The notes under the pieces are model-generated. The model worked only from the letters and a program-made list of their open reading frames with translations. It was not told where the DNA came from and made no database searches. Position numbers and translations under genes: made by a program. Below, piece after piece: positions 2,588 to 54,583 of a stretch of DNA of 64,000 bases; the first letter of the stretch is position 1; each line of letters opens with the position of its first letter. Source of the DNA: an uncultured Latescibacterota bacterium (GTDB taxonomy: Bacteria > Latescibacterota > UBA2968); contig OY282377.1 in NCBI GenBank assembly GCA_958295785.1, positions 3,328,385-3,392,384 of the forward strand. Reading direction: 5' to 3'.

Positions 2588-2839
2588 ATGATCGTGAAAG
2601 ACATTACCATGAGTGCCGCCGAGAACTTGATCGTATCAGCACACCGATGCGCGGCGGCGAACCGCACGACCTTAAACGCGCAATTTCAGTTGTGGCTGAA
2701 AGACGACATTCAGCGCAACGGAGACTGCGTTCAACGCGAAAATCAGGTTGCCGAAGCCATGAAAGTCATCCGCGATCTGCAAGGCAACATCTTCACTGGC
2801 GGGCGAAAATTTACTCGGGAAGAGATGAATGAGCGTTGA
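2588..2839 (+). CDS. hypothetical 83-aa protein (cassette copy 1)
   Basis: RBS AAAGGAG 6 nt upstream. An identical paralog at 3668..3919 differs by 2 aa, so coding is conserved in the duplicate. Confidence 0.5.
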   Translation: MIVKDITMSAAENLIVSAHRCAAANRTTLNAQFQLWLKDDIQRNGDCVQRENQVAEAMKVIRDLQGNIFTGGRKFTREEMNER

Positions 2840-3110
2840 AAGTTTGCTATTGCCCCTAGGATTGGTTATCATAATCGGCCTTAGTTCTGAACACCCTGCT
2901 GGGGAGGCTTCTTCATTCCACCGGCTCCCCAAGTCGGCTCTTGGTGGACAACCGCCGGATATTGACCGGCACCTTCTTTGATCTTAAAATGGGCATCCTC
3001 TTAGGAATAGTGAATGCCTGCCTAAAAAAATGACTGGAGGTCAAATAAGGAATTAAGAAAGAATTTGACCAAGCTATTCAATCGCAAGAGACGATCCACC
3101 CGGAGGTTTT

Positions 3111-3590
3111 ATGGCTACAATGACCTTTGATACCTACGCCTTTGTCAAGGAACTGGTTCAGGCCGGAATGCCTGAAGAACAGGCTGAGGTGCTGGCGCGT
3201 TCACAAGCGGCGTTGATTGCTGAAAAATTGGCGACCAAGCAGGATTTGAAAGAACTGGAATTGTGTGTGAAACGCGACCTGAAAGAACTGGAAGTGCGAT
3301 TGAAACGCGATATGAAGGAGATGGAATTGCGTCTGAAGCACGATATCCAGAAATTGGAACGCGATATGAAGGAGATGGAAGCCAATTTGAAACGCGATAT
3401 GAAGGAGATGGAAGCCAATTTGAAACGCGATATGAAGGAGATGGAATTGCGTCTGAAACGCGATATCCAAAAATTGGAACGCGACATGAAGGAGATGGAA
3501 TTGCGTCTGAAGCACGATTTGACCTTGCGTCTCGGCTCCATGATGGTCGTCGCTATCGGCGTAGTCGCTGCGCTGGTGAAACTCCTATAA
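3111..3590 (+). CDS. DUF1640-like tail-anchored coiled-coil protein with 11-residue (33-bp) repeats, copy 1
   Basis: RBS GGAGG. N-terminus MATMTFDTYAFVKELVQAGMPEEQAEV..LATKQDL resembles DUF1640 (from memory). Hendecad repeats LKRDMKEMExx follow. C-terminal hydrophobic anchor MMVVAIGVVAALVKLL. Confidence 0.6.
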   Translation: MATMTFDTYAFVKELVQAGMPEEQAEVLARSQAALIAEKLATKQDLKELELCVKRDLKELEVRLKRDMKEMELRLKHDIQKLERDMKEMEANLKRDMKEMEANLKRDMKEMELRLKRDIQKLERDMKEMELRLKHDLTLRLGSMMVVAIGVVAALVKLL

Positions 3591-3667
3591 GGATAATCCA
3601 TAGGTGATGGAGAAGCGGGCTTTGTTGCCTTGTTGTTCATTTTGGTATTAGTCATCAAAGAAAGGAG

Positions 3668-3919
3668 ATGATCGTGAAAGACATTACCATGAGTGCCGAC
3701 GAGAACTTGATCGCATCGGCACACCGATGCGCGGCGGCGAACCGCACGACCTTAAACGCGCAATTTCAGTTGTGGCTGAAAGACGACATTCAGCGCAACG
3801 GAGACTGCGTTCAACGCGAAAATCAGGTTGCCGAAGCCATGAAAGTCATCCGCGATCTGCAAGGCAACATCTTCACTGGCGGGCGAAAATTTACTCGGGA
3901 AGAGATGAATGAGCGTTGA
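3668..3919 (+). CDS. hypothetical 83-aa protein (cassette copy 2)
   Basis: Near-identical duplicate of 2588..2839. Confidence 0.5.
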   Translation: MIVKDITMSADENLIASAHRCAAANRTTLNAQFQLWLKDDIQRNGDCVQRENQVAEAMKVIRDLQGNIFTGGRKFTREEMNER

Positions 3920-4190
3920 AAGTTTGCTATTGCCCCTAGGATTGGTTATCATAATCGGCCTTAGTTCTGAACACCCTGCTGGGGAGGCTTCTTCATTCCA
4001 CCGGCTCCCCAAGTCGGCTCTTGGTGGACAACCGCCGGATATTGACCGGCACCTTCTTTGATCTTAAAATGGGCATCCTCTTAGGAATAGTGAATGCCTG
4101 CCTAAAAAAATGACTGGAGGTCAAATAAGGAATTAAGAAAGAATTTGACCAAGCTATTCAATCGCAAGAGACGATCCACCCGGAGGTTTT

Positions 4191-4757
4191 ATGGCTACAA
4201 TGACCTTTGATACCTACGCCTTTGTCAAGGAACTGGTTCAGGCCGGAATGCCTGAAGAACAGGCTGAGGTGCTGGCGCGTTCACAAGCGGCGTTGATTGC
4301 TGAAAAATTGGCGACCAAGCAGGATTTGAAAGAACTGGAATTGTGTGTGAAACGCGACCTGAAAGAACTGGAAGTGCGATTGAAACGCGATATGAAGGAG
4401 ATGGAAGCCAATTTGAAACGCGATATGAAGGAGATGGAATTGCATCTGAAGCACGATATCCAGAAATTGGAACACGACATGAAGGAGATGGAAGCCAATT
4501 TGAAACGCGATATGAAGGAGATGGAATTGCGTCTGAAGCACGATATCCAGAAATTGGAACACGACATGAAGGAGATGGAAGCCAATTTGAAACGCGATAT
4601 GAAGGAGATGGAATTGCGTCTGAAACGCGATATCCAAAAATTGGAACGCGACATGAAGGAGATGGAATTGCGTCTGAAGCACGATTTGACCTTGCGTCTC
4701 GGCTCCATGATGGTCGTCGCTATCGGCGTAGTCGCTGCGCTGGTGAAACTCCTATAA
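4191..4757 (+). CDS. DUF1640-like tail-anchored coiled-coil protein, copy 2 (29 aa longer through extra hendecad repeats)
   Basis: Same N- and C-termini as 3111..3590. The internal repeat count is expanded. Confidence 0.6.
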   Translation: MATMTFDTYAFVKELVQAGMPEEQAEVLARSQAALIAEKLATKQDLKELELCVKRDLKELEVRLKRDMKEMEANLKRDMKEMELHLKHDIQKLEHDMKEMEANLKRDMKEMELRLKHDIQKLEHDMKEMEANLKRDMKEMELRLKRDIQKLERDMKEMELRLKHDLTLRLGSMMVVAIGVVAALVKLL

Positions 4758-4887
4758 GGATAATCCTAGGTGATGGAGAAGCGGGTTGCACCTGTCTTTA
4801 CAGTGAAGACATGCAGGAAGGTCAACAGATACGGGGCTTGACCATTCAAAATCCATTCAAGTAACCATTGCAGAAAGGATCGCGCCC

Positions 4888-7800
4888 ATGGCGAAACGAT
4901 CAAGAACGCCCAAATCCGTTGAGACCCTCACGCACGGCGACGCGACGCGCAAGAATATTCCCACCGCCGAGTATCAGCCCGTGATGCGAGCGGAGGATCA
5001 GGCCCCAATCCGCGTCGCATATCAGCGGCGCAACCGCGATCTCGATCCGCAACTCGTTTGGCGCGGCAAGGACGAGCAAGATTGGTCGGACCTCGTTGTG
5101 CCCGCGCCGCCGCTTTTCATTCAGGAAAAGGTGCATCCGAAAGTGCTGATCGACGATCTGTTGCGCCAAAGCGCGGAGACAGCCACCACCGCGCCGGGGT
5201 TCCAGCCCGATTTGTTCGCCGACTTCAACGGCCTGCCCGACCCAAGCGCGGCGACCGAGTTCTACCAGCACGACGCCAACTGGTCGAACCGCATGATCCT
5301 CGGCGACAGCCTGCAAGTGATGGCCTCCCTGGCCGAGCGTGAGGGCCTGCGCGGTCAAGTGCAGTGCATCTATATTGACCCGCCCTACGGCATCAAGTTC
5401 AATTCCAATTTCCAATGGTCCACCACCAGCCGCGACGTGCGAGACGGCAAGCGCGAGCACATCACGCGAGAGCCTGAGCAGGTGAAAGCGTTTCGGGATA
5501 CGTGGCGCGATGGCATCCATTCCTACCTGACCTACCTGCGCGACCGCCTGACCGTAGCGCGGGATTTGTTGACCGAGAGCGGTTCGGTGTTTGTGCAGAT
5601 CGGCGATGAAAATGTCCATCGGGTGCGGGCGTTGATGGATGAGGTGTTTGGGGATGAGAATTTTGTCGGGGAGATTATTTTTAAAACCCGTAGCACATCT
5701 ACCAGCAAAAATCTGTCTGCGTTGAATGATTACATCATATGGTATTGTAAAGATATTAATGCACTAAAATTCCGTCAATTTTACATGCAGAAAAGTGCTG
5801 ACAGGGCGCGTTTCAATTTTGCCGATATTGATGGCGAAATTTTCAGTGTCAATGAAAAAAATATCAATATCGGAAGCGTTAAGTATTTCTCAAGTAGTAG
5901 TCTGTTCTCAACAAGCGGCGGAGACGCTTCCCGGATTCCCTTTGAGTTCTGTGGGAAAAAATATACCCCGGCAATCTCTCGTGGATGGCGATGCTCACTT
6001 GATGGGCTATTACGCCTTACCTATGCAAGCCGTATATTCAACCAAGGTAATTCTATCCGCTATAAATACTTTCACGCCGATTTCCCATTCGTCGAGGGCG
6101 GGAATCTATGGGATGATCAAATGTCCGAGCAAAACAAATCTTATGTGGTGCAAACATCTCCAAGACCCATTGAACGCTGCATCCTCATGACCACCGACCC
6201 TGGCGACCTCGTTCTCGATCCCACCTGCGGATCTGGCACAACCGCTTATGTCGCCGAGCAATGGGGCAGGCGGTGGATCACCATTGACACCAGCCGAGTC
6301 GCGCTCGCGTTGGCGCGTGCCCGCATCATGGGGGCGCGCTATCCCTACTACCTCCTCTCGGACAGCGCGGAGGGGCAGCGCAAGGAAGCGGAAATCAGCC
6401 GCACCGCGCCATCGGAAACGCCCGCATACAACGACATCCGCCAAGGCTTTGTGTATCAGCGCGTGCCGCACATCACCCTGCGCGACATCGCCAACAACGC
6501 GGAAATCGACATCATTTGGGAGAAATATCAGAAAACGCTCAAATCGCTTCGGGCATCGCTCAACAAGGCGGTGAACGAGGATTGGCGGGAATGGGAAATC
6601 CCGCGCGAAGCCGACGAATCGTGGTCGGACGCGGTCAAGGCATTGCACGGCCAATGGTGGGAACAGCGCATCGCACGGCAAACAGAGATCGACGCGTCTA
6701 TCGCGGCGAAAGCGGACTGCGAGTATCTCTACGACAAGCCCTACGAGGAGAGAAAGAAGGTGCGCGTCGCCGGCCCGTTCACGGTGGATAGCCTATCGCC
6801 GCACCGCGTTTTGGGCATCGATGAAAACGACGACCTCATCGACAGCGCGGCAGATCCCGAACTCGAGCACAGCGAATCGCAGGATTTTTCCGGGATGATT
6901 TTGGAGCACCTCAAAACCGCTGGCGTGCAACAGGCGCGCAAAGACGACCGCATCGCGTTTTCATCCCTCGCGCCGTGGCCGGGCGATTTGGTTTGCGCCG
7001 AAGGCACGTACGCCGAGGGCGACGCGGATTCTGGCATTTACAAACGCGCTGGCATTTTCATCGGCCCCGAGTTTGGCACGGTCTCGCGTCCCGATCTGGC
7101 GAGGGCCGTGCGCGAGGCGGGCGAGGCCGATTTCGATGTGCTCATCGCCTGCGCGTTCAACTACGACGCCCAATCCACGGATTTCGACAAACTGGGGCGC
7201 GTCCCGGTGCTCAAAGCGCGCATGAACGCGGATCTTCACATGGCCGACGACCTCAAGAACACGGGCAAGGGCAATCTGTTCGTGATTTTCGGCGAGCCTG
7301 ATATTTCAGTGGCGAGTGAAGAGTGGTTAGTGGATGGTTCAGAAAGGAGAATCGCGCCGTATGACATCTTTAAGCTCGTATCGGGAACGGATCGGCTGGC
7401 AGAAGTCAATAGACTTGACCGTGAGGAGTTACGCGCTCATGCGGCGCTTTCCCGCCGAGGGGAGATATGGGATTACCTCACAGATGCGGCGTGCCGCGTC
7501 CTCAATTCCGGCGAACATCGCGGAGGGACAGGCAAGGCGAACAACGAGGGAATTTCTCCAGTCGCTTGGCATTGCGCGGGGGTCTCGGGCGGAACTGGAG
7601 ACCTTTCTGACCTTATGCGAAAGGCTGGCACTGATACGGAGAGAGGCTTCCGAGAACTTGTTGGCAGACTGCGCCGAGATCAACAAAATGCTCAACGCGC
7701 TGATGAAATCACGCGCCACTCGCCACTAACCACTCGCCACTATACACAGGTCACTGTCCACGGCGTTGACGTCTTCCACCCCAACACCGGCGAGATTCGC

Positions 7801-8627: not shown

Positions 8628-9893
8628 ATGCTGACGCAACGCGAACTGGGGCAGCGGTTGAAGCGTGCGCGCGAGGCAATCGGGTTGACCCAACAGCAGG
8701 TTGCCGATAGCGTCGCGCTTACCCGCGTTGCAATTTCCCAAATCGAATCGGGACGACGGGCGGTCAGTTCATTTGAACTCCTGCATCTCTCGCGTCTTTA
8801 CGGGCGAGATATGGTCAGTTTTTTTGACGAAAATGCCCACATGCAGGAGGCGGAAAACGCACTGACTGTCCTGTTTCGCACGCATCCCGAACTGGTTCAA
8901 ACCCCTGCGTGCAGAGAAGCATTGCAACGGGCCGATGAGATATTCCGAGAATATCTCAATTTGAAAGCCCTTTTGGATTTGGATACAGAACAGAACCTGC
9001 CGCCTGTATATGCTTGTCCCGAACCGAGAAATGTTTGGGAAGCCATTCATAAGGGCGAGCGCGTCGCCGAGGCGGAACGCAGTCGTCTGGCGTTGGGGCA
9101 TGATCCCATCCGCGATATGACCGAGTTGGTGGAATCGCAGGGCATACCCATCATTGAAATCAATTTGGATGATCAGATATCTGGTCTCTTTATCGCCCAT
9201 ACAGAAACGCAGTTGTGCATCTTCGTCAACCGAGAACAACTCGGTAGGGCAAGGGCGCGAGTCGCATTTACTATCGCCCATGAATACGGTCACATCTTGC
9301 TTGACCGGGATAAAGTCAGTGCCATCAGCAGAATCTCAAACGAGCGCGATTTGTTTGAAGTGCGTGCGAATGCTTTTGCCGCCGCGTTTCTCATGCCGGA
9401 AGAAGGGGTGAGTCAATTTCTCAAAACCATCGGCAAAGGCGCGTCCAGCCGCGAAAAGCTGTTGGCCTATACCGTGCCCGACCTGCTCGTGGGGCATCAC
9501 CGCCGCTTGGCATCCACCCAAGTCCTCACGCTTTACGATGTCGTCAAGTTCTGCGCGTATTTTGGAACCAGCTTTGAAGCCGCCCTGTACAGATTGAGAA
9601 ACACAAAGTTTCTTTCCGAGGGATCATTTGATCAACTCTACGAACAAAAAGAAAAAGCGAGGAAAATTGGACAACATCTCAAAATAGAAGAAGGAAGGCG
9701 AGACCACCCCAGCAGTTTCGCGGTCAATTTCACGGGGCTGGCTATCGAAGCCTATCGGCGCGACAAAATCACGTACGACAAATTGGTCAATCTCGCAGCA
9801 CAAGTGAAATTTGATTCTGAGGTCATAGACGAAGTACTCTCCTGCATGGGACTGGAAAACAATCGCGAAGAAGCGATCTATCTTCCGGAGTGA
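8628..9893 (+). CDS. XRE-family HTH fused to an ImmA/IrrE-family (DUF955) metallopeptidase domain
   Basis: N-terminus LTQRELGQRLKRAREAIGLTQQQVADSVALTRVAISQIESGRR (HTH_XRE). HEYGHILLD supplies the HExxH motif, and ANAFAAAFLMPEEGV matches ImmA/IrrE. Confidence 0.7.
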   Translation: MLTQRELGQRLKRAREAIGLTQQQVADSVALTRVAISQIESGRRAVSSFELLHLSRLYGRDMVSFFDENAHMQEAENALTVLFRTHPELVQTPACREALQRADEIFREYLNLKALLDLDTEQNLPPVYACPEPRNVWEAIHKGERVAEAERSRLALGHDPIRDMTELVESQGIPIIEINLDDQISGLFIAHTETQLCIFVNREQLGRARARVAFTIAHEYGHILLDRDKVSAISRISNERDLFEVRANAFAAAFLMPEEGVSQFLKTIGKGASSREKLLAYTVPDLLVGHHRRLASTQVLTLYDVVKFCAYFGTSFEAALYRLRNTKFLSEGSFDQLYEQKEKARKIGQHLKIEEGRRDHPSSFAVNFTGLAIEAYRRDKITYDKLVNLAAQVKFDSEVIDEVLSCMGLENNREEAIYLPE

Positions 9894-9926
9894 TCTCGTG
9901 TAGAAAAAACAGAGAGCCAGTCATGC

Positions 9927-10418
9927 GTGATTACGGACGCAAATATTCTGATCAATTTTATCAAAATTGACCGTGTGGATATTCTCCAACACCTGCGAGT
10001 GTATACTTTTTACTTGCCCGAGGAAGTATATCGGGAAATCACATATCCAGCACAACGGCTCGTTTTAGATCGCGCCCTCAAAAATGGATGGCTGAAAAAA
10101 ATTGTGATAACGGATCAAAATGAATTGCGTTCTTATGCAAAATACAAACGACAAATGGGTGATGGAGAGGCCGCGTGTTTGGCGATTGCGATTTGTCGAA
10201 AGTGGCTCATGGCCTGCGATGAACAAAAAAAGAAACTGATTTCCAGAACAGTTTAGCATCATTTGGGAGCGGGCTATCTCCTGAATACACCGGGTATTTT
10301 GCTCAAGGCCATACGCGAGAGCATTCTCACTATATCACAAGCAGACGCAATCAAAAACACGTTGGCGCAGAACCGATTTGTCATGCCATTTGCCTCTTTC
10401 CAGAATTTTAGCGCACCA
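9927..10418 (+). pseudogene. PIN-domain (DUF3368-like VapC-type) nuclease gene interrupted by one in-frame TAG at 10254-10256
   Basis: GTG start. N-terminus ITDANILINF..DGEAACLAIAI is PIN-like. After the TAG the same frame continues HHLGAGYLLNTPGILLKAIRESIL..., a PIN C-terminus. Confidence 0.55.
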
Positions 10419-42527: not shown

Positions 42528-42950
42528 ATGTTCTTTAAGAAACAACCCAAAATTGGCCGCGAGGCCATGTTCAAATCCAAGCCCGTTCGCAACAATCAGG
42601 TCGAATGGGAGAAAAATGACGACGGCGAAATTCACGTCACCCTCACGCGCGGCGATTCGTGGAAGGTGCGTACCCTTTCCAAAATTTTCTGGATTCCCAA
42701 GACAAAAACCCTGGTGCTCGACGAAATTGGCGCGCAGGTCTGGGATATGTGCGACGGTCGCACAACTGTCGAAGCCATCATCAAACGCCTGGGCAAAACC
42801 CACCAACTCAATTTGAAAGAAGCCGAAATCTCGTTGCTCGCCTATCTCAAAAAGCTCGGGCAAAAGGGATTGCTCGGGTTTGCCGTTTCAAAAAAAGACC
42901 TGCCCGGCAGCAAGCGCCGCAGACGCGCCAGCGGCAAGGCATGGGGATGA
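42528..42950 (+). CDS. PqqD-family (RiPP recognition element-like) protein
   Basis: VLDEIGAQVWDMCDGRTTVEAIIKRLGKTHQLNLKEAEISLLAYLKKLGQKGLL matches the PqqD/RRE pattern. Confidence 0.55.
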   Translation: MFFKKQPKIGREAMFKSKPVRNNQVEWEKNDDGEIHVTLTRGDSWKVRTLSKIFWIPKTKTLVLDEIGAQVWDMCDGRTTVEAIIKRLGKTHQLNLKEAEISLLAYLKKLGQKGLLGFAVSKKDLPGSKRRRRASGKAWG

Positions 42951-44822: not shown

Positions 44823-44858
44823 TGCGCGGTGCTGACCCTTTCAATAAGGAGTTTTACC

Positions 44859-46328
44859 ATGAGTTCCCAAACGCAAGAGCTCGAAACGCTGGCGACGGGC
44901 GATTACAAATTTGGCTGGGTGACGGATATCGAGCAGGAATCCGCCCCCCCAGGTCTGAATGAAGACATCATTCAATTTATCTCCGAGAAAAAAAACGAGC
45001 CCGATTGGTTGCTCGCATGGCGCTTGAAAGCCTATCGCCACTGGCTGACCATGACCGACCCGCTCAAGCGCAAAAAGAGCGAGCAGTGGGCGATGGTCAC
45101 ATATCCGGATATCGACTATCAGCGCATCGTGTACTACGCCGCGCCCAAGAATGCGGGTGAGGGGCCGGAAAGTTTGGACGAGGTCGATCCCGAACTTCTG
45201 GCGACTTATGAAAAACTCGGCATTCCCCTCGAAGAGCAAAAAATGCTGACCGGCGTGGCTGTCGATGCGGTTTTTGACAGCGTTTCCGTGGCGACGACCT
45301 TTAAGGAAACCCTGGCCGAGGCGGGGGTCATTTTCTGCTCGTTTTCAGAAGCCGTGCAAGAGCATCCCGATCTGGTGAGAAAGTATCTCGGTTCGGTCGT
45401 GCCGCATACCGACAATTATTTTGCGGCCCTCAACTCGGCGGTCTTCAGCGATGGGTCGTTCTGCTATATCCCCAAGGGCGTGCGCTGCCCAATGGAGCTA
45501 TCGACGTATTTCCGCATCAACGCCGCCAACACAGGCCAATTTGAACGCACCCTCGTCATCGCCGATGAGGGGGCTTATGTGTCGTATTTGGAAGGATGCA
45601 CAGCGCCGATGCGCGACGAAAATCAGCTTCACGCCGCAGTGGTGGAGCTCGTCGCGCTGGGCAATGCACAGATCAAATACGCCACAGTGCAAAACTGGTA
45701 TCCGGGCGACATCAACGGCAAGGGCGGCATTTACAACTTCGTCACCAAACGCGGCGCGTGCCGGGGCGTCAATGCCAAAATTTCGTGGACGCAAGTAGAG
45801 ACGGGCTCGGCCATTACGTGGAAATATCCGAGTTGCATTTTGCAAGGCGACAACTCGGTGGGCGAATTTTACTCGGTCGCTGTCACCTCCCTCAAGCAGC
45901 AGGCCGACACTGGCACCAAGATGATCCACATCGGCAAAAACACGCGGAGTACCATCATCTCCAAAGGCATCTCTGCCCTGCGCGGGCAAAACACCTATCG
46001 CGGTGCCGTGCAAGTGCTCAAGGGCGCGCGCGACGCCAGAAATTTTACCCAATGCGATTCCATGCTCATCGGCGACCAGTGCGGCGCGCACACCTTTCCC
46101 TATATCGACGTCCGCAATCCCTCCGCACAGGTCGAACACGAGGCCACCACGTCCAAAATTGGCGAAGATCAAATTTTCTATTGCAACCAGCGCGGCATCT
46201 CCACAGAAGACGCGGTTTCCCTGATCGTCAATGGGTTTTGCAAGGAAGTCCTGGCAGAATTGCCCATGGAATTTGCAGTCGAAGCCCAAAAACTCCTCGG
46301 CATCAGCCTCGAGGGCAGTGTGGGATAG
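44859..46328 (+). CDS. sufB: Fe-S cluster assembly protein SufB
   Basis: RBS AAGGAG. Characteristic SufB sequence throughout, e.g. [43 protein letters not shown]. Confidence 0.9.
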
Positions 46329-46360
46329 GAACTATCCGAAAGCGCAAAGGAGGCCATCAC

Positions 46361-47407
46361 ATGGCAAAACAAATTGCACTCTTCAATCACAAGGGCGGCG
46401 TGAGCAAGACAACGACCACCTTCAACCTCGGCTGGATGCTGGCGAACAAGGGGAAGAAGGTGATCCTCGCCGACTGCGACCCGCAGTGCAATCTCACGGG
46501 CATGGTTTTAGGATTCATGGATGCTTGGGATTTTTCATCGACTTACGAGTCAAAAAAGGTGAAAAATATCCGCGATGGTCTCGCCCCCGCTTTTGAATCT
46601 CGGCCAGCACCTATTGAACCGGTAGTCTGCGAGCCAATCAAGGGGCAACCTAACATGCACCTGTTGCCCGGTCACATTGGCCTCGCCGAATACGAAGTCA
46701 CCTTGGGTATTGCACAAGAGTTGTCAGGCTCGCTCGTAACCCTACAGAACTTGCCAGGCTCTCTTCACCATCTCTTTTCTAAAACTGCCGAGAAGTACGA
46801 CGCCGATTTTATCCTTGTGGATATGAGCCCGAGTCTGGGGCCCATTAACCAAAACCTTCTGATGACGAGTGACTATTTCATCGTACCGATGATGCCGGAT
46901 TACTTCTCGGCGATGGCGACGGATAGCCTTGCCTCTATTTTGCCCAAGTGGTCAGAATGGGCAAAGGAAGCAAAAAAAATAAAAGCGCTCAGGGAGGCGA
47001 TTTATCCTTTTCCCGATAAGACACCCAAATTTCTCGGTATGATCGTTCAGAAATTTAGGCCAAAAAAAGAAATTCCTGCCGCTGCATTCCAAAATTGGAT
47101 CGATCAAATAGAAAAAGGAGTTGGGGAAAAGCTCATACCCGTGTTAAGAGAACGCGATATGTTGCTTCCAGAGAAGGTCTATCAAAAAAATGGCTTTCAG
47201 ATAGACCAACCGCTTCTTCAGATGGCAGACTTCAACAGTCTGATCGCCCTTTCGCAAAAGCACAACGCTCCTATTTTCGATTTGACCGATGAGCAAATTG
47301 GACAAACGGGAGTCGTGCTTGAAAGTACCAAGAAATCCATGCTTCAATTTCGGGATTTATACGCCAAAGGGGCGGATCTAATCATAAAGCTCGTTGAACA
47401 TGCTTAG
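46361..47407 (+). CDS. ParA/MinD-superfamily ATPase (deviant Walker A), AT-rich insertion in the suf operon
   Basis: RBS AAGGAGG. NHKGGVSKTTTTFNLGWMLANKGKKVILADCDPQCNLT. Its 3' end overlaps the next ORF by 8 nt. Confidence 0.7.
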   Translation: MAKQIALFNHKGGVSKTTTTFNLGWMLANKGKKVILADCDPQCNLTGMVLGFMDAWDFSSTYESKKVKNIRDGLAPAFESRPAPIEPVVCEPIKGQPNMHLLPGHIGLAEYEVTLGIAQELSGSLVTLQNLPGSLHHLFSKTAEKYDADFILVDMSPSLGPINQNLLMTSDYFIVPMMPDYFSAMATDSLASILPKWSEWAKEAKKIKALREAIYPFPDKTPKFLGMIVQKFRPKKEIPAAAFQNWIDQIEKGVGEKLIPVLRERDMLLPEKVYQKNGFQIDQPLLQMADFNSLIALSQKHNAPIFDLTDEQIGQTGVVLESTKKSMLQFRDLYAKGADLIIKLVEHA

Positions 47408-48002
47408 TGCCATTCGACAATTTCGTGCGAATATGGAACGGGTACGCGCTATCGGCGGGTTGTATGAGGCACTCGATCAATTGACGACACCTGCCGTAGA
47501 TGCAACAGATCTTTTACGCACACAAATCGCGATGGCTATAAGCGCGCTCGACCATTACATCCACTCGATCACCCGGATTGGGATGTTAGAGGTGTACGAT
47601 GAAAAACGTCCTCCGACCAATGCTTTTTCGCGCTTTCAAGTGACGATAGATGCGGCCATGACAGGGATTGCCGAATCGGTCGGAAACGCTTGGTTTGAGA
47701 TGGAAATCCGCGAGAAACACGGATATATGGCCTTTCAGCATCCAGACAAGATAGCGGATGCGGTGCGGCTTTTCTCATCGTGCGAGTTATGGACATCCGT
47801 TGCTTCGCAACTGGGGTTGACAGTACAAGACGTGAAAAATCGGCTTCGCCTTATCGTCGATCGCCGCAATCGGATCGTTCATGAGGCCGACCTGGATCCG
47901 AGTTATCCCGGGAGCCGTTGGCCTATTTCACCTTCTGACTCGGCGGAGGCCGCAGATTTTATCCAAGACATTTGCGAAGCCATTCATGAGGTTGTTACAT
48001 AA
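47400..48002 (+). CDS. HEPN-like protein (Rx4-6H motif RRNRIVHE near the C-terminus) co-operonic with the ParA-like ATPase
   Basis: ATG at 47400 overlaps the upstream stop. ..LRLIVDRRNRIVHEADLD fits the HEPN Rx4H signature. The predicted protein is all alpha-helical. Confidence 0.45.
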   Translation: MLSAIRQFRANMERVRAIGGLYEALDQLTTPAVDATDLLRTQIAMAISALDHYIHSITRIGMLEVYDEKRPPTNAFSRFQVTIDAAMTGIAESVGNAWFEMEIREKHGYMAFQHPDKIADAVRLFSSCELWTSVASQLGLTVQDVKNRLRLIVDRRNRIVHEADLDPSYPGSRWPISPSDSAEAADFIQDICEAIHEVVT

Positions 48003-48028
48003 ACCGCAACACAATGAGGGATGAATAC

Positions 48029-48778
48029 ATGTTGGAAATTCGGAATTTGCATGCCGGTGTGGAGGGCGCGAAAATTTTGCACGGCATTGATCTCGCGGTC
48101 AATGCGGGCGAAACCCACGCCATTATGGGCCCCAATGGGTCGGGCAAGAGCACATTGGCGCAGGTGCTCGCGGGGCACGAAGCGTATTGCGTCACGGCGG
48201 GCGAAGTTTTCTATCGGGGCGAAGACCTGCTCGATATGGCCCCTGATGAGCGCGCGGCGCAGGGCTTCTTTCTCGCGTTTCAATATCCGGTGGAAATCCC
48301 CGGCGTGAACAGCGCGTACTTTTTGCGGACGGCCCTCAACGCCATTCGCAAAGCGAGAGAGGAAGATGAGATCGATGCGTTTGACTTTCTCTCCCTGATC
48401 CGCGACAAACTCAAACTGGTCGAAATGGACGAAAAATTTCTCAATCGCCCGGTCAACGAGGGCTTTTCTGGCGGAGAAAAAAAACGCCATGAAATTTTGC
48501 AGATGGCCGTTTTGGAACCCCGCCTCGCCATTCTCGACGAGACCGATTCCGGCCTGGACATCGACGCGTTGCGCGTTGTTGCCCATGGGGTCAACACCCT
48601 GCACGGCCCGGACAAAGCGACCATTGTGGTGACGCACTACCAGCGGTTGCTCAACGACATTGTGCCCGATGTCGTCCATGTGATGCTCGACGGGCGCATT
48701 GTGCAATCGGGCGACAAAACCCTCGCCTTGGAATTGGAAGAAAAGGGATATGACTGGATAAAAGAAAAACGCGGTTAG
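48029..48778 (+). CDS. sufC: Fe-S cluster assembly ATPase SufC
   Basis: Walker A GPNGSGKST, ABC signature FSGGEKKR, Walker B LAILDETDSGLD. Confidence 0.9.
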   Translation: MLEIRNLHAGVEGAKILHGIDLAVNAGETHAIMGPNGSGKSTLAQVLAGHEAYCVTAGEVFYRGEDLLDMAPDERAAQGFFLAFQYPVEIPGVNSAYFLRTALNAIRKAREEDEIDAFDFLSLIRDKLKLVEMDEKFLNRPVNEGFSGGEKKRHEILQMAVLEPRLAILDETDSGLDIDALRVVAHGVNTLHGPDKATIVVTHYQRLLNDIVPDVVHVMLDGRIVQSGDKTLALELEEKGYDWIKEKRG

Positions 48779-48873: not shown

Positions 48874-50163
48874 ATGGCATACAATCACCCATCGTGGATT
48901 CGGAAATTTGAAACAGCGTGCAATGGGCAACCCCTTCGAGCCTTGCGCGAAACGGCAATGGTCGATTTTGACCGGTTGGGCTATCCCACCACCGCGGATG
49001 AAGCGTGGAAAAGCGTGAATCTGTCCGCGCTCATCAAGCCCGATTTCCAACCCGCTGCCCCTGTCCCGCTGTCAGATGCAGAATTGGCCCCCTTTCTCTA
49101 TCCCGACCTGCGGGCCATCCGCATCGTCTTTGTCAATGGGCACTACGCGCCAACACCTATATCTGAGGCGGCCTTAACTATCGCCAATCTCGCCGATGTG
49201 TATGACCACGCGCTCGTCAAAGCGCGTTTGGGAACACTCGCGCGAACAGCAAACCTGCCCTTCACGGCCCTCAACACGGCCTTCATGCGCGATGGCGTAT
49301 TTATCCGCGTTCCGCCAAATGTCGCGGTTGAAACACCCGTGCATCTCCTCTTTCTCACAACGGCTTCAGAGGTGCCCACGATATCGCATCCTCGCGTCTT
49401 GATCATCGCGGAAGAGAACAGCCAACTCGCGCTTGTCGAAACGCATGCCGGAATCGATACAGGCGTTTATTTTAGCAATGCGGTGACGGAAATCATCGCC
49501 CGCGACAATGCCAGTGTGGATCACATTCGCCTCGGGCTGCAAAGCAAGGAGGCATTGCACATCGCCAATTTTCAGGCCGAACTCGGGCGCAACAGCCGGC
49601 TGACTTTGCACGATTTTACCCTCGGCGGGGCATTTGTGCGCCACGACATCAGCGCGTACTTGCGCGGCGAGGGCGGCGAGGCCACGGTCAATGGCTGTTA
49701 TGTGCTCAACGGGTCTCAGCATGTGGATAATTATACCCTGCTCGAGCACGCCGAACCCCATTGCCCGAGCCACGAACTCTACAAGGGGATTTTGGGCGGG
49801 TCCGCGCGCGCCATTTTTCGGGGAAAAATTCACGTCCACCAAAAGGCGCAACACACAGACGCTTACCAGCAAAACGAAAATATTTTGCTATCGGACAATG
49901 CGCGGGTCAACGCCAAACCACAACTCGAAATCTATGCGGACGAGGTCAAGTGTTCGCACGGCGCGACTATCGGGCAACTCGACGAAAACGCCTTGTTTTA
50001 TTTGCAAGCGCGGGGCATTGCCAAAGCCGAGGCCCGGCGGCTATTGTTGCGCGCCTTTGCCGAAGAGGTCGTCGGGCGCGTGCCCCTTGCCCCTGTGCGG
50101 TCACATCTGAGCGATTTGATCGACGCGCGCCTCGCCCACATCCACGCAGAGGACATGGCATGA
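48874..50163 (+). CDS. sufD: Fe-S cluster assembly protein SufD
   Basis: SufB/SufD-family beta-helix region. Sits between sufC and sufS. Confidence 0.8.
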   Translation: MAYNHPSWIRKFETACNGQPLRALRETAMVDFDRLGYPTTADEAWKSVNLSALIKPDFQPAAPVPLSDAELAPFLYPDLRAIRIVFVNGHYAPTPISEAALTIANLADVYDHALVKARLGTLARTANLPFTALNTAFMRDGVFIRVPPNVAVETPVHLLFLTTASEVPTISHPRVLIIAEENSQLALVETHAGIDTGVYFSNAVTEIIARDNASVDHIRLGLQSKEALHIANFQAELGRNSRLTLHDFTLGGAFVRHDISAYLRGEGGEATVNGCYVLNGSQHVDNYTLLEHAEPHCPSHELYKGILGGSARAIFRGKIHVHQKAQHTDAYQQNENILLSDNARVNAKPQLEIYADEVKCSHGATIGQLDENALFYLQARGIAKAEARRLLLRAFAEEVVGRVPLAPVRSHLSDLIDARLAHIHAEDMA

Positions 50164-51440
50164 ATTCGCCATTGGACATCCTAACGCTTCAACCGCCCGA
50201 GGCTATCGCGCGTCCGGCACAGCCTTTTGATGTGCGCCGCATTCGCGCAGATTTTCCCATTTTGGGCGAACGAGTGCGGGGCCAACCGCTCGCGTACCTC
50301 GACAACGGCGCCACCGCGCAAAAACCATACGCGGTCATCGACGCGCTCGCGCATTATTACGCAACGCAAAATGCCAATGTGCATCGCGGCGTACACCACC
50401 TCTCGCAGGTTGCGACCGACGCGTACGAAGCGGCGAGGAGAAAAGTCGCATCCTTCATCAACGCGGCCTCGGACCGGGAAATCATTTTTGTGCGCGGAAC
50501 CACCGAGGGCATCAACCTCATCGCGCAAACTTTTGGACGCGAGGGCGTTGGCGAAGGCGATGAAATCATCGTCAGCGAAATGGAGCACCATTCCAACATC
50601 GTTCCGTGGTGGATGCTCTGCCGGGAAAAGGGCGCGAAATTGCGCGTCATTCCCATGAACGACCGGGGCGAATTCCGTTTGGATGCGTATAAAACCCTGT
50701 TCTCGCCGCGCACAAAACTCGTGTCTTTTGTCCACATTTCCAACGTGCTCGGCACGGTCAATCCGGCCGCGGAAATGGTGGGCATCGCGCGTGAGCACGG
50801 CGTGCCCGTACACATCGACGGGGCGCAAGCCGTGCCGCATCAGCGCGTAGATGTGCGCGAGATAGATTGCGATTTCTACACGTTTTCCGGGCACAAAATG
50901 TTCGCGCCCACCGGCATTGGCGTCCTCTACGGCAGGGAAACGCTCCTCGAATCCATGCCGCCCTACCACGGCGGGGGCAGCATGATCCAGCATGTGGATT
51001 TTGACGAGATCACGTACGCGGACTTGCCCAACAAGTTTGAAGCCGGCACGCCCAATATCGCGGGCAGCATTGGCTTGGGCGCGGCCATCGACTATCTCAA
51101 CAGCATCGACTTTGACGGCGCAGCGCGATACGAAGCCCAGCTCTTGGAATACGCCCACGCGGCCTTGCGCGCGGTGCCCGACCTCAAATTGATCGGCACG
51201 GCAAAGCACAAAGTGGGCGTGCTCTCGTTTGTCCTGTCCGACATTCACCCCCACGACGCGGGCACGATTCTCGACCTTGCCGGCGTTGCCGTGCGCGCCG
51301 GGCACCACTGCGCCCAACCCATTATGAAACACTACGACATCCCCGCAGCCACGCGCGCCTCGTTGGCATTTTACAATACCCGCGAAGACATTGACGCGCT
51401 GGTGCGCGGGCTTCACAAAGTGCGAAAGGTTTTTGGCTGA
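50160..51440 (+). CDS. sufS: cysteine desulfurase SufS
   Basis: ATGA overlap with the sufD stop. Class V aminotransferase. SGHKMFAPTGIGVLYG carries the PLP lysine. RAGHHCAQP carries the active Cys. Confidence 0.9.
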   Translation: MNSPLDILTLQPPEAIARPAQPFDVRRIRADFPILGERVRGQPLAYLDNGATAQKPYAVIDALAHYYATQNANVHRGVHHLSQVATDAYEAARRKVASFINAASDREIIFVRGTTEGINLIAQTFGREGVGEGDEIIVSEMEHHSNIVPWWMLCREKGAKLRVIPMNDRGEFRLDAYKTLFSPRTKLVSFVHISNVLGTVNPAAEMVGIAREHGVPVHIDGAQAVPHQRVDVREIDCDFYTFSGHKMFAPTGIGVLYGRETLLESMPPYHGGGSMIQHVDFDEITYADLPNKFEAGTPNIAGSIGLGAAIDYLNSIDFDGAARYEAQLLEYAHAALRAVPDLKLIGTAKHKVGVLSFVLSDIHPHDAGTILDLAGVAVRAGHHCAQPIMKHYDIPAATRASLAFYNTREDIDALVRGLHKVRKVFG

Positions 51441-52311: not shown

Positions 52312-52357
52312 ATGCGGCACTTCGCGGTGTCCATTTTCCATCTCAAAAGGAAAAACA

Positions 52358-53938
52358 ATGCTCTTGACGCTTAAACAGGCGAGCGAATGGGCATCGGAAT
52401 ACGCCAATAAAAACGTGACGCCTTCCAATATCTCGTATTTGATTCAGTACGCGCGGATCAAATGTGTCGTCAATAACGGCGTCAAGCTCATTCCCAAAGA
52501 AAGCCTGATTGCGTACTACGCCGCGCACCAAAAGCGCCGAGAGACCCGGTGGAAAGAACAACTCGGAAGCGACTTGAATTGGCATCTTTCCTTTGAAGAG
52601 GTCAAAGAAGCGGAAACCACGAAGCACGTACACCGGTTGCACCCCTACAAAGGAAAATTCATTCCCCAACTGGTCGAATATTTCTTGGACGACCATACGG
52701 ACGACTTTAAGCGGGACACCTATTTTGAGCCAAATGATATTGTCCTCGACCCTTTTTGTGGCAGTGGGACCACACTGGTTCAAGCCAACGAACTGGGCAT
52801 GCACGCCATTGGCATTGATATTTCGGCTTTCAACGCTTTGATCGGCAATGCCAAAGTTGCGGGTTACAATTTGGGCGAGTTATACGCCGAAAGCTGGAAA
52901 ATTACAACCGCCCTGAGAAATTTTGTATCCCGCTCGAACATCCTCACATTTGACTCTAAACTCGCTGAACGGCTCGCGGCCTTCAACGCGGCGCATTTTT
53001 CCGTTGCTTTCAAGCAGCGGGTCAAAACCGGGGAAATTGATCAGAAAAACTACGGCAACGAAAAGGACGCCGCCTTTCTGAAAACGTATCGCCAACTCGT
53101 TGCGGAGTACCAAATTGATTTACGGATGTCTGCGGACTCGGGTAGCTTTATGCGACATTGGTATCTGCCGTGCATTCGGGCGGAGATCAATTTTGTCCAC
53201 AGCATGATTCGACAAGTCGCAGATGAGGCGACCCAAAGAGCACTGATGCTGATTTTGAGCCGCACCATCCGCTCGTGCCGGGCGACAACCCATGCGGATT
53301 TAGGCACGTTAAAAGAACCGATCACAACGACCTATTATTGCCGAAAACACGGAAAAATCTGCAAACCGCTGTTTTCCATTTTGGGTTGGTGGGAGCGATA
53401 CAGCGAGGACAGCGTACAGCGATGGGATGCGTTTAGACAGATAAAAACGGATACTTTTCAACACTGTTTGACCGGGGATTCTCGAACCATCGACATTTTT
53501 AAGGCCGTCAGACAGGCGAATCCGCGTCTCGCCGAACGCGCCGAAAAACAACGGATCAAGGGCATTTTTTCCAGCCCGCCTTATGTCGGTTTAATCAACT
53601 ACCACGACCAACACGCCTATGCCTACGATTTGTTTGGTTTCAACAGGCGCGATGAATCGGAGATCGGCCCTTTGTTTAAGGGCAAGGGGAAAGAGGCCAG
53701 AGCATCGTATATTCGAGGGGTGTCGGAGGTCTTAAAGAATTGCAAGCGATTTTTGGCAAAAAATTGCGACGTGTTTCTCGTGGCAAACGATCAGTTTGAC
53801 ATATATCCGACCATAGCGGAAAGAGCGGGGATGCAAATTGTTGACCAGCACAAACGGCCCGTCTTAAATCGCACGGAGAAAAACAGGGGTTCGGCGTATT
53901 CCGAAACGATATTTCATCTGAAAGCACAAAATCACTAA
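52358..53938 (+). CDS. alpha-class N6A/N4C DNA methyltransferase with N-terminal extra domain, AT-rich
   Basis: Motif X HPYKGKFIPQLVEYFL and motif I LDPFCGSGTT near the N-terminus. Motif IV FSSPPYVGLINY lies ~250 aa later. GC is lower than the flanks. Confidence 0.7.
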   Translation: MLLTLKQASEWASEYANKNVTPSNISYLIQYARIKCVVNNGVKLIPKESLIAYYAAHQKRRETRWKEQLGSDLNWHLSFEEVKEAETTKHVHRLHPYKGKFIPQLVEYFLDDHTDDFKRDTYFEPNDIVLDPFCGSGTTLVQANELGMHAIGIDISAFNALIGNAKVAGYNLGELYAESWKITTALRNFVSRSNILTFDSKLAERLAAFNAAHFSVAFKQRVKTGEIDQKNYGNEKDAAFLKTYRQLVAEYQIDLRMSADSGSFMRHWYLPCIRAEINFVHSMIRQVADEATQRALMLILSRTIRSCRATTHADLGTLKEPITTTYYCRKHGKICKPLFSILGWWERYSEDSVQRWDAFRQIKTDTFQHCLTGDSRTIDIFKAVRQANPRLAERAEKQRIKGIFSSPPYVGLINYHDQHAYAYDLFGFNRRDESEIGPLFKGKGKEARASYIRGVSEVLKNCKRFLAKNCDVFLVANDQFDIYPTIAERAGMQIVDQHKRPVLNRTEKNRGSAYSETIFHLKAQNH

Positions 53939-53953
53939 TGGGCGGTATGCGAT

Positions 53954-54583
53954 ATGGACCGCGTTTTCATCTACTGGGACAATTCCAATATTTTTCACGA
54001 GGCGCAACGCCTTGCCGAAGAACGCAATGAAGGTGCTGACGCCCGTTACCGCGTGCGTATTCACTTCGGCAACTTGTTGCGCTTGGCGCATGCCGACCGA
54101 CCGCTGGCAAAGGCACTCGCCGCCGGTTCTGTGCCGCCGGAAATGCGCCAGTTGTGGAATCGGATGGAAAGCGGGGGTGTGGAAGTCCAGTTGTTTGACC
54201 GCGGCAACCCAGAACGCGGCGAACAAGAAATGCCCGACCGCGTGTTGCAGTTGCGAATGTTGGAAGACGCGCTGGATTACAACGGCGACCCCGGCATTGT
54301 GGTGTTGCTGACCGGCGATGGCGCGGGCTACTTGCAAGGCGCGGGTTTCCACAGCACGCTGGCGCGCATGCACAAACGCGACTGGCGCGTGGAAATCCTG
54401 TCGTGGGCACACGCTTGCAACCAGCGGATGCGCCGATGGGCAGAAGAAAACGGGGCGTTTGTGGCGTTGGACGACTTTTACGAAGCCATAACCTTCAGGG
54501 AGCCATCCAGGGCCGGGTTTGCGCTCGCGGCGGCACGCGATTCTGCGGCATTGGATTTGTCGCAGCGGGCGATGGCTCAATGA
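53954..54583 (+). CDS. NYN/LabA-like (PIN-fold) nuclease domain protein
   Basis: MDRVFIYWDNSNIFH ... IVVLLTGDGAGY matches NYN motifs. 16 nt downstream of the MTase. Confidence 0.6.
   Translation: MDRVFIYWDNSNIFHEAQRLAEERNEGADARYRVRIHFGNLLRLAHADRPLAKALAAGSVPPEMRQLWNRMESGGVEVQLFDRGNPERGEQEMPDRVLQLRMLEDALDYNGDPGIVVLLTGDGAGYLQGAGFHSTLARMHKRDWRVEILSWAHACNQRMRRWAEENGAFVALDDFYEAITFREPSRAGFALAAARDSAALDLSQRAMAQ

Follow-up and report, generated by a model that had tools for sequence, protein, structure and literature searches.

The subject of this analysis is a pair of adjacent genes that lie between sufB and sufC in an operon of an uncultured Latescibacterota bacterium and encode, respectively, a ParA/MinD-type ATPase and a small HEPN-domain protein, a predicted RNase. 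The locus belongs to a stretch of 64,000 nucleotides (nt) of contig OY282377.1 (positions 3,328,385 to 3,392,384, forward strand), hereinafter the window; all coordinates are those of the window unless another locus is named. An earlier annotation made from the sequence alone (the original prediction) claimed that the suf operon, a core iron-sulfur (Fe-S) operon, is interrupted by these two genes, and this is confirmed by the listing of open reading frames (ORFs) and by NCBIfam searches. Together with family searches, the ORF listing yields the gene order sufB, ATPase, HEPN, sufC, sufD, sufS (50160-51440), sufU and SUF_assoc/DUF59. The features of the junction are as follows.

44829-46328, plus strand: sufB, the upstream flank of the insertion (NCBIfam SufB NF008773, 2.9e-272; Pfam SUFBD_core)
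46329-46360, plus strand: spacer of 32 nt that separates the stop of sufB from the start of the ATPase gene (direct sequence reading)
46361-47407, plus strand: gene of the ParA/MinD-fold (SIMIBI class) ATPase, 348 amino acids (aa) (Pfam AAA_31 and CbiA; AlphaFold2 model; Foldseek)
46391-46414, plus strand: deviant Walker A motif KGGVSKTT, residues 11-18 (alignment of 74 family members)
46472-46492, plus strand: Walker A'/switch-I region DCDPQCN, residues 38-44 (alignment of the 74 loci-derived sequences)
46475-46477, 46487-46489 and 46628-46630, plus strand: codons of Cys39, Cys43 and Cys90 of the ATPase (alignment)
47400-47407, plus strand: 8-nt overlap of the ATPase stop with the HEPN start, ATGCTTAG (sequence)
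47400-48002, plus strand: gene of the stand-alone HEPN-domain protein, 200 aa (Pfam RiboL-PSP-HEPN)
47862-47885, plus strand: HEPN Rx4-6H motif RRNRIVHE, residues 155-162 (alignments of homologs)
48003-48028, plus strand: spacer of 26 nt that separates the stop of the HEPN gene from the likely start of sufC (sequence)
48014-48778 (listed ORF), plus strand: sufC, the downstream flank of the insertion (NCBIfam TIGR01978 sufC, 1e-108)

The ATPase gene is preceded by a ribosome-binding site, AGGAGG, at 46348-46353, within the 32-nt spacer. The HEPN gene can be read from an ATG at 47400, which gives a protein of 200 aa and the 8-nt overlap, or from a TTG at 47394, which gives 202 aa. The original prediction combined the 202-aa length with the 8-nt overlap; the overlap stands but goes with the shorter protein. 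The ATG is preferred because it fits both the overlap and the N-termini of the homologs (MLSAI.../MHSAI...). The overlap of the two ORFs suggests translational coupling. At the flanks, 44829 is the listed ORF start of sufB, the real start of which may be an ATG 30 nt downstream, whereas sufC likely starts at the ATG at 48029, as judged from the preceding GAGGGA and from the fact that most SufC homologs align from residue 6 of the ORF listed from 48014. In agreement with the original prediction, both inserted genes have a lower G+C content (GC) than the suf genes, namely, 47.7% for the ATPase gene (55% at third codon positions, GC3) and 51.1% for the HEPN gene (GC3 52%) vs 54-60% (GC3 62-73%). 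A weak, consensus-only scan of the plus strand between 46.3 and 48.0 kb detected neither promoter-like nor terminator-like sites, reading of the junctions, without a formal repeat search, showed no target-site duplications or repeats at the borders of the insertion, and Rfam has no match anywhere in the window. The two ORFs are genuine genes rather than chance ORFs, given that databases contain 1038 relatives of the HEPN protein and more than 6600 of the ATPase, the closest of which are 80-99% identical.

The first protein is a deviant-Walker-A ATPase of the ParA/MinD type with the ParA/Soj fold, as originally predicted from its KGGVSKTT motif. This assignment follows from the agreement between Pfam (AAA_31, 7.3e-31; CbiA, 7.7e-16) and Foldseek and from the conservation of the Walker A, A' and B residues. 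The AlphaFold2 model (predicted local distance difference test score 83.6, predicted template modeling score 0.87) has a ParA/MinD core elaborated by insertions and a long helix at the C-terminus. A Foldseek search started with this model retrieves 3PG5 (DIP2308) as the best match, followed by Soj (2bek), Helicobacter pylori Soj and ParA (8ray), with a probability of 1.00, and 3pg5 is also the first match in a profile search of the PDB (5e-23). Among the 74 family members, the signature lysine K11 and residues G12, G13, V14, K16, T17 and T18 of the Walker A motif are at least 97% conserved, as are, across the Walker A, A' and B motifs, K11, K16, D38, D40 and D154; the pattern KGGVxK[TS]T is retained in 72 of the 74. 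Of the cysteines, Cys90 is present in all 74 sequences, Cys43 in 96% and Cys39 in 78%; Cys43 and Cys90 persist even in the Pf-prophage and Burkholderia plasmid homologs that are only 36-42% identical. The DCDPQCN segment that includes two of these cysteines resembles the GCDPK switch region of NifH, and there is a weak NifH match in Pfam.

The second protein matches the RiboL-PSP-HEPN family (PF18735) over residues 31-199 with a score of 39.7 bits (gathering score 28.4; E = 6.3e-10); a precomputed match to the same family is present in all 120 listed homologs, and no other HEPN model of Pfam matches the protein at E ≤ 0.1. The 200-aa protein conforms to the all-alpha HEPN fold. Residues R155, R156, I159, H161 and E162 are invariant across 50 database homologs, and the pattern RR[NH]x[IVL]xHE is matched by 75 of 75 homologs derived from the loci, so that the originally suggested reading of RRNRIVHE as an HEPN-like Rx4H motif is supported both by the family match and by the alignment. 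An intact Rx4-6H motif marks HEPN proteins that act as metal-independent RNases, the composite active site of which forms on dimerization, and the HepT toxins of the HepT/MntA systems are small HEPN proteins of the stand-alone type whose genes follow that of a nucleotide-using partner. The 200-aa protein is a stand-alone HEPN protein of the RiboL-PSP-HEPN family, and we propose that it is an RNase effector or toxin.

The family is sizeable. Searches with the HEPN protein identify 1038 relatives in a database clustered at 90% identity, the best 120 of which are 65-88% identical and about 200 aa long, and a hidden Markov model (HMM) scan of 1.84 billion representatives yields 1523 clusters at E ≤ 1e-3 and 919 at E ≤ 1e-10 (about 1500 clusters as counted at 50% identity), nearly all of them stand-alone proteins of about 200 aa. 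Across 185,579 species genomes (one genome per species), there are at least 436 HEPN loci, the best 80 of which were used for the analysis of taxonomy, context and alignments. Poribacteria account for 26 of these 80; the others come from Latescibacterota, Chloroflexota (Caldilineaceae, Dehalococcoidia), Planctomycetota, Acidobacteriota, Nitrospirota, Desulfobacterota, Omnitrophota, cyanobacteria and Proteobacteria, including Pseudomonas alliivorans, Rhizobium multihospitium and Luteimonas. A contig of a metagenome-assembled genome (MAG) labeled "Hadarchaeota archaeon" matches, at 99.9% identity over 4.8 kb, a pair-carrying contig of a Dehalococcoidales MAG (L069/L070), so that the only archaeal record of the pair is probably an artifact of binning.

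In every locus with upstream DNA (about 95 loci from more than 10 phyla), the ATPase gene is located directly upstream of the HEPN gene, and nowhere is the downstream partner of the ATPase a ParB or another centromere-binding protein. This count includes some 76 of the 80 loci from the species genomes (the remainder are truncated), Syntrophales contigs, the loci of the closest HEPN homologs, 6 IMG/VR contigs, 2 Pf-type phage records and one Burkholderia glumae plasmid. The gene order is kept even at 30-40% identity; the ORFs overlap in 64 of 77 loci, by 8-29 nt, with the exact figure depending on the start codon chosen; and, across loci, the identity between two HEPN proteins correlates with that between the respective ATPases (r = 0.72). 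The pairing, which had been described as unusual in the original prediction, is in fact constant, and a similar dyad was proposed in 2013 (Anantharaman et al. 2013, Biol Direct 8:15, PMC3710099). By contrast, the genomic context is not conserved: 150 immediate-neighbor ORFs fall into 144 Pfam families, none of which is found in more than 5 loci, and there is no recurrent third partner among these neighbors. Copies of the pair are carried by Pf5-type filamentous prophages of Pseudomonas aeruginosa (PA14), within the accessory region, and by Burkholderia glumae plasmids that are mostly typed as conjugative by PLSDB, and one close relative is found among IS66/DDE transposases and a BsoBI fragment. 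Given the heterogeneity of the neighbors and the lack of a fixed third component, these genes appear to form a self-contained, horizontally moving two-gene module, as had been surmised; its copies occur in unrelated contexts in many phyla, plasmids and prophages.

The location within the suf operon, in contrast to the pairing itself, is indeed unusual. The pair resides between sufB and sufC in only 5 genomes, namely, the window, two Latescibacterota MAG chromosomes (L010 and L025; SufB 96-98%, ATPase 82-88% and HEPN 84-86% identical to those of the window) and two metagenomic contigs (L179 and L180; SufB 96%, SufC 90%, SufD 77-78% and HEPN 81-83%), whereas slightly more distant HEPN homologs (77%) are found in unrelated contexts. 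The sufB-sufC junction is visible in 66 of the 80 nearest metagenomic relatives of SufC (65-78% identical), and none of the 66 contains the pair; the spacer is 0-180 nt long in 58 of these and at least 238 nt in the remaining 8. The nearest outgroup, L090 (SufB 87% identical), has a 57-nt spacer without the pair. Comparison of the suf operons did not reveal conservation of the two genes within suf across the phylum in a housekeeping capacity, the contrary outcome named in the original prediction. With respect to L010 and L025, the synonymous divergence (dS) of the ATPase and HEPN genes is 0.32-0.52, compared to 0.21-0.45 for the flanking suf genes, and the ratio of nonsynonymous to synonymous divergence (dN/dS), at 0.14-0.16 in the ATPase and 0.23-0.26 in the HEPN protein, indicates purifying selection on both. 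The similar dS values and the purifying selection point to one ancestral insertion followed by vertical inheritance. The best reading of these observations is that a horizontally acquired cassette inserted once into the sufB-sufC spacer of a Latescibacterota-like ancestor; at present, the cassette is most likely co-transcribed with the suf genes, as we infer. Thus, the module itself is common, and its place inside a core Fe-S operon is a lineage-specific curiosity.

Three members of this clade carry additional insertions. In L025 (OZ242010.1, positions 9136-9932), an IS4/5-family transposase gene (DUF4096 + DDE_Tnp_1_2) lies on the opposite strand exactly between the ATPase stop and the HEPN start. 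In the more distant members L179 (positions 2606-3958) and L180 (positions 3221-3928), additional low-GC ORFs (43-44% vs 53-54% for sufB) are located between sufB and the ATPase gene. One of the encoded proteins, of about 100 residues (137 aa in L180), is common to both contigs; in addition, L179 encodes a protein of 235 aa and L180 one of 63 aa. On visual inspection, the ORFs resembled HicB, but the three proteins searched (all except the 63-aa one) have no Pfam matches; the arrangement looks like cargo accretion at the junction.

Taken together, these findings are best compatible with the pair being a mobile conflict module of the toxin-antitoxin or abortive-infection type that consists of a predicted HEPN RNase effector and a ParA-like controller, a reading to which we assign a probability of about 0.65. 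It agrees with the logic of the dyad described in 2013 in the position of the ATPase gene ahead of its partner, the translational coupling, the constancy of the pairing, the conserved catalytic motifs and the mobility of the module; the RNase activity, the toxicity and the direction of control are what we infer. The HEPN protein would be the effector, a dimeric, metal-independent RNase acting through the Rx4-6H motif, and the ATPase encoded upstream and translationally coupled to it would be its nucleotide-dependent controller. ParA-type ATPases dimerize upon ATP binding, hence the proposal that an ATPase dimer restrains the HEPN protein. Under this scheme, the ATPase would most likely hold the RNase inactive in an antitoxin-like manner, via ATP-dependent dimerization or binding, such that its ATP-bound dimer would sequester the HEPN protein or block productive HEPN dimerization; the RNase would be released once the ATPase is lost, depleted or triggered, e.g., by phage infection or a collapse of the ATP level. 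The specific assignment of the antitoxin role to the ATPase is tentative, at somewhat less than even odds. The module could be an addiction module, an abortive-infection defense system, or both.

Several observations weigh against this interpretation. For a toxin, the HEPN family is highly conserved (65-88% identity among the best 120 matches), and conservation is higher in the ATPase (median 64%) than in the HEPN protein (51%), the opposite of many toxin-antitoxin pairs. The neighbors are mostly housekeeping genes, few of the 150 match defense models, and there is no clear defense-island signal; in viral contigs, the pair is rare (6 loci in 2.9 million in IMG/VR). In L025, the insertion sequence (IS) splits the pair with both ORFs intact and with a new N-terminus of the HEPN protein (MSTRPSAIQQ...), and in an alphaproteobacterial MAG (L089, positions 8813-9999), an internal tandem duplication of about 130 nt frameshifts the ATPase gene and leaves the HEPN gene intact, which may reflect misassembly or a copy that naturally lacks a functional ATPase; the latter would have a bearing on the antitoxin hypothesis. 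Either locus would be awkward for a strictly lethal toxin dependent on coupled synthesis of the antitoxin. The nearly invariant Cys43 and Cys90 of the ATPase, which may have a metal-related, disulfide or structural role, are a further feature that the reading does not account for. A search of PADLOC-DB 2.0.0 yields no matches for the HEPN protein at E ≤ 0.1, and no experimental work on the ATPase-HEPN family and no paper combining "ParA-like ATPase" with HEPN were found in the literature. In the same database, the ATPase matches only PDC-M28B, via the P-loop (residues 2-40), and this is also the case for the plasmid and phage homologs; the possibility that the pair is a catalogued defense system is rejected on these grounds. 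A review lists PF18735 as the HEPN domain of PD-T4-2, PD-T4-5, PD-T7-3 and ApeA.

Some of the same observations would be expected if the pair performed a non-toxic function in RNA processing or another housekeeping role, with an RNase and an ATPase chaperone or loader that confer an ordinary benefit and spread by horizontal transfer. The high conservation across phyla, the mostly housekeeping neighbors and the tolerance of an IS between the genes in L025 all fit such a pair. It is nevertheless a rather unlikely explanation: the distribution is patchy, with at least 436 loci in roughly 186,000 species genomes and without conserved genomic context; copies are located in prophage accessory regions, on plasmids and beside transposases; and a stand-alone HEPN protein with a nucleotide-using partner encoded upstream is typically a toxin (PMC3710099).

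The position of the pair raises the question of a domesticated regulator of Fe-S homeostasis, in which, for instance, the cysteines of the ATPase would sense the redox or Fe-S status, and an RNase gated by the ATPase would tune the transcripts of suf or other genes. Retention of the pair in the operon, under purifying selection, spans a clade in which SufD is only 77-85% identical; co-expression with suf is probable given that no internal promoter or terminator was found; and the conserved Cys43 and Cys90 and the GCDPK-like N-terminal region reminiscent of NifH would suit a sensor. The cysteines, however, are not an adaptation to suf because they are conserved family-wide, including about 90 loci unrelated to suf. 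An addictive module would equally show purifying selection and long retention, the pair is missing from all 66 of the other suf junctions, and the unrelated low-GC ORFs at the L179/L180 junction resemble accretion of cargo rather than operon design, so this explanation appears improbable. A more elaborate scenario, in which the dyad is an unrecognized, widespread ATP-gated RNase conflict system with Cys43/Cys90 as a redox or metal sensor, and embedding in suf couples control of the RNase to Fe-S or oxidative stress, is a long shot.

A positioning or partition system of the ParA type, with the HEPN-like protein as a non-catalytic adaptor analogous to ParB or McdB, would account for the complete ParA/Soj fold and the signature lysine of the ATPase, and ParA ATPases normally pair with a small partner encoded immediately downstream; moreover, the Pf5 homolog is annotated as "similar to Soj (ParA)". 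But the partner here has the HEPN fold with an invariant catalytic Rx4-6H motif, which implies catalysis rather than an adaptor function; no ParB or DNA-binding family of Pfam, and hence no ParABS-type partner, was found for the pair; and the majority of copies lie on chromosomes, in random contexts where no centromere-like repeats were noticed, which makes this reading very improbable. Finally, an Fe-S cluster carrier of the Mrp/NBP35/ApbC type serving the suf pathway, suggested by the position of the ATPase gene and by weak Pfam matches to PF10609 (NUBPL iron-transfer P-loop NTPase) and NifH, is effectively refuted by the sub-threshold HMM scores (PF10609, 25.9 bits vs a cut-off of 27.1, over the P-loop residues 3-40 only; NCBIfam ApbC and MrpORP, 17-18 bits vs cut-offs of 348-450), the absence of a CxxC motif in the ATPase and the lack of a general association with suf, the context of the pair in a single clade.

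If the conflict-module interpretation is correct, such that a ParA-fold ATPase controls a HEPN RNase, the pair would represent a new mechanism of neutralization or activation in the biology of HEPN-based toxin-antitoxin and defense systems. PADLOC, the defense catalogue searched, lacks the family at issue (about 1500 clusters and at least 436 loci), and in the 2013 survey, a ParA/Soj-HEPN dyad was predicted for a sister family of HEPN proteins only. This interpretation would also provide a function for an accessory gene pair of a clinically studied prophage, Pf5 of P. aeruginosa PA14.

The sufB-sufC junction contains other modules in several of the surveyed relatives. An antitoxin and ParE-toxin pair is located in the spacer in each of L107 (positions 5500-5900) and L111 (positions 3638-4113); L161 (positions 2691-4553) carries an AriA/AriB PARIS-like pair (AriA 1.8e-29, AriB 2e-9), L168 (positions 4629-5012) a four-helix protein of the 23S_rRNA_IVP family, and L105 (positions 2602-3378) a metallophosphoesterase. 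As observed without a background comparison, the junction may be a recurrent site of landing or retention, a safe harbor for selfish or defense cassettes. The ParE and PARIS-like modules lend circumstantial support to the original suggestion that the ATPase-HEPN pair exploits an essential operon. The suf site matters less when taken alone; together with the ParE and PARIS-like modules, it suggests that spacers of essential, highly expressed operons are recurrent safe harbors. In a different type of insertion, SufB of a metagenomic relative (L160, positions 4090-5159) is split in frame by an intein-like segment of about 356 aa that follows YLEGC and ends in ...VHNC; SufB inteins are known elsewhere.

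Several additional genes surround the suf operon of the window. Directly after the operon (52355-53938), there is a gene for a type II N6/N4 DNA methyltransferase with a GC of 49% (PADLOC MTase_II, 7.5e-225), and no restriction-enzyme gene was identified among the adjacent ORFs examined. The next gene (53954-54583) encodes a NYN-domain protein. Both genes occupy the same place in L010 and L025, and in the Dehalococcoidia genomes L074 and L086, homologs of the NYN protein (76-77% identity) are also encoded near the ATPase-HEPN pair, at a distance of 5-8 kb. Upstream of sufB, two tandem, nearly identical CCDC90-like coiled-coil paralogs (PF07798; 43003-43581 and 43677-44342) possess a C-terminal hydrophobic segment and differ in length (192 vs 221 aa) through the number of internal repeat units; these are preceded by a PqqD-family protein gene (42528-42950).

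Among the known systems, the closest in design is the ParA/Soj-HEPN dyad that was predicted to be a toxin-antitoxin system for HEPN proteins belonging to the MAE_18760 family, with the ATPase proposed to act as the antitoxin via nucleotide-dependent conformational change or phosphorylation and HEPN as the RNase toxin (PMC3710099). Both the 2013 dyad and the pair described here combine adjacent genes for a ParA/Soj-like SIMIBI ATPase and a HEPN protein with an intact Rx4-6H motif, but Pfam assigns the HEPN protein here to RiboL-PSP-HEPN and to no other HEPN model at E ≤ 0.1, and the table in the 2013 survey lists RiboL-PSP-HEPN as an "operon with ParB", not ParA. The HepT/MntA (type VII) systems differ in that the partner here is a ParA-fold ATPase without a nucleotidyltransferase domain, and the HEPN protein is larger (200 vs about 130 aa) and belongs to a different family; because the partner is not a minimal nucleotidyltransferase, neutralization of the AMPylation type cannot be assumed. 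The 2013 classification places RiboL-PSP-HEPN in the Swt1/Abi2 clade, in a distant relationship with AbiF/AbiD (Abi2; type III, Cas13 ancestors), so that the latter are the closest named HEPN clade, although the HEPN protein has neither an Abi_2 match in Pfam nor a PADLOC match. In AbiF/AbiD, an anti-phage RNase effector is restrained by a co-encoded antidote, an upstream non-coding RNA, whereas the partner here is a protein, and there are only 32 nt ahead of the ATPase gene; a type III architecture with an RNA antitoxin was rejected given the lack of upstream room and of any Rfam match in the window.

The closest structural and sequence relative of the ATPase, DIP2308 of Corynebacterium diphtheriae (3PG5), is an uncharacterized ParA-like protein from structural genomics that is similar in length (361 vs 348 aa) and in fold (Foldseek E = 2e-13, template modeling score 0.55-0.61) but only 23-27% identical. 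Homologs of both proteins of the pair are encoded by PA14_49030, annotated as "Soj/ParA-like putative regulatory protein", and the ORF downstream of it in prophage Pf5, and by the gene pairs of the B. glumae plasmids (ATPase 36-42% and HEPN 30-36% identical), with the same gene order and close spacing; the two ORFs overlap in both Pf5 and WX-TY, and those of B. glumae have 1 nt in common. In a Pf-type prophage record (AY324828.1; L170, positions 4001-4528), the HEPN ORF that follows the "Soj-like" Orf317, the counterpart of PA14_49030, is unannotated, which explains why the pair has escaped notice in the Pf5 literature: the ParA-domain gene was only noted as unique to Pf5 (Li et al. 2018, PMC7379572), and the Pf5 papers found contain nothing beyond the mention of this gene. 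Unlike the pair in the window, these pairs reside in the accessory region of a filamentous prophage or on plasmids rather than in a core operon, but they retain the Walker A motif, Cys43, Cys90 and the RRNxIVHE motif.

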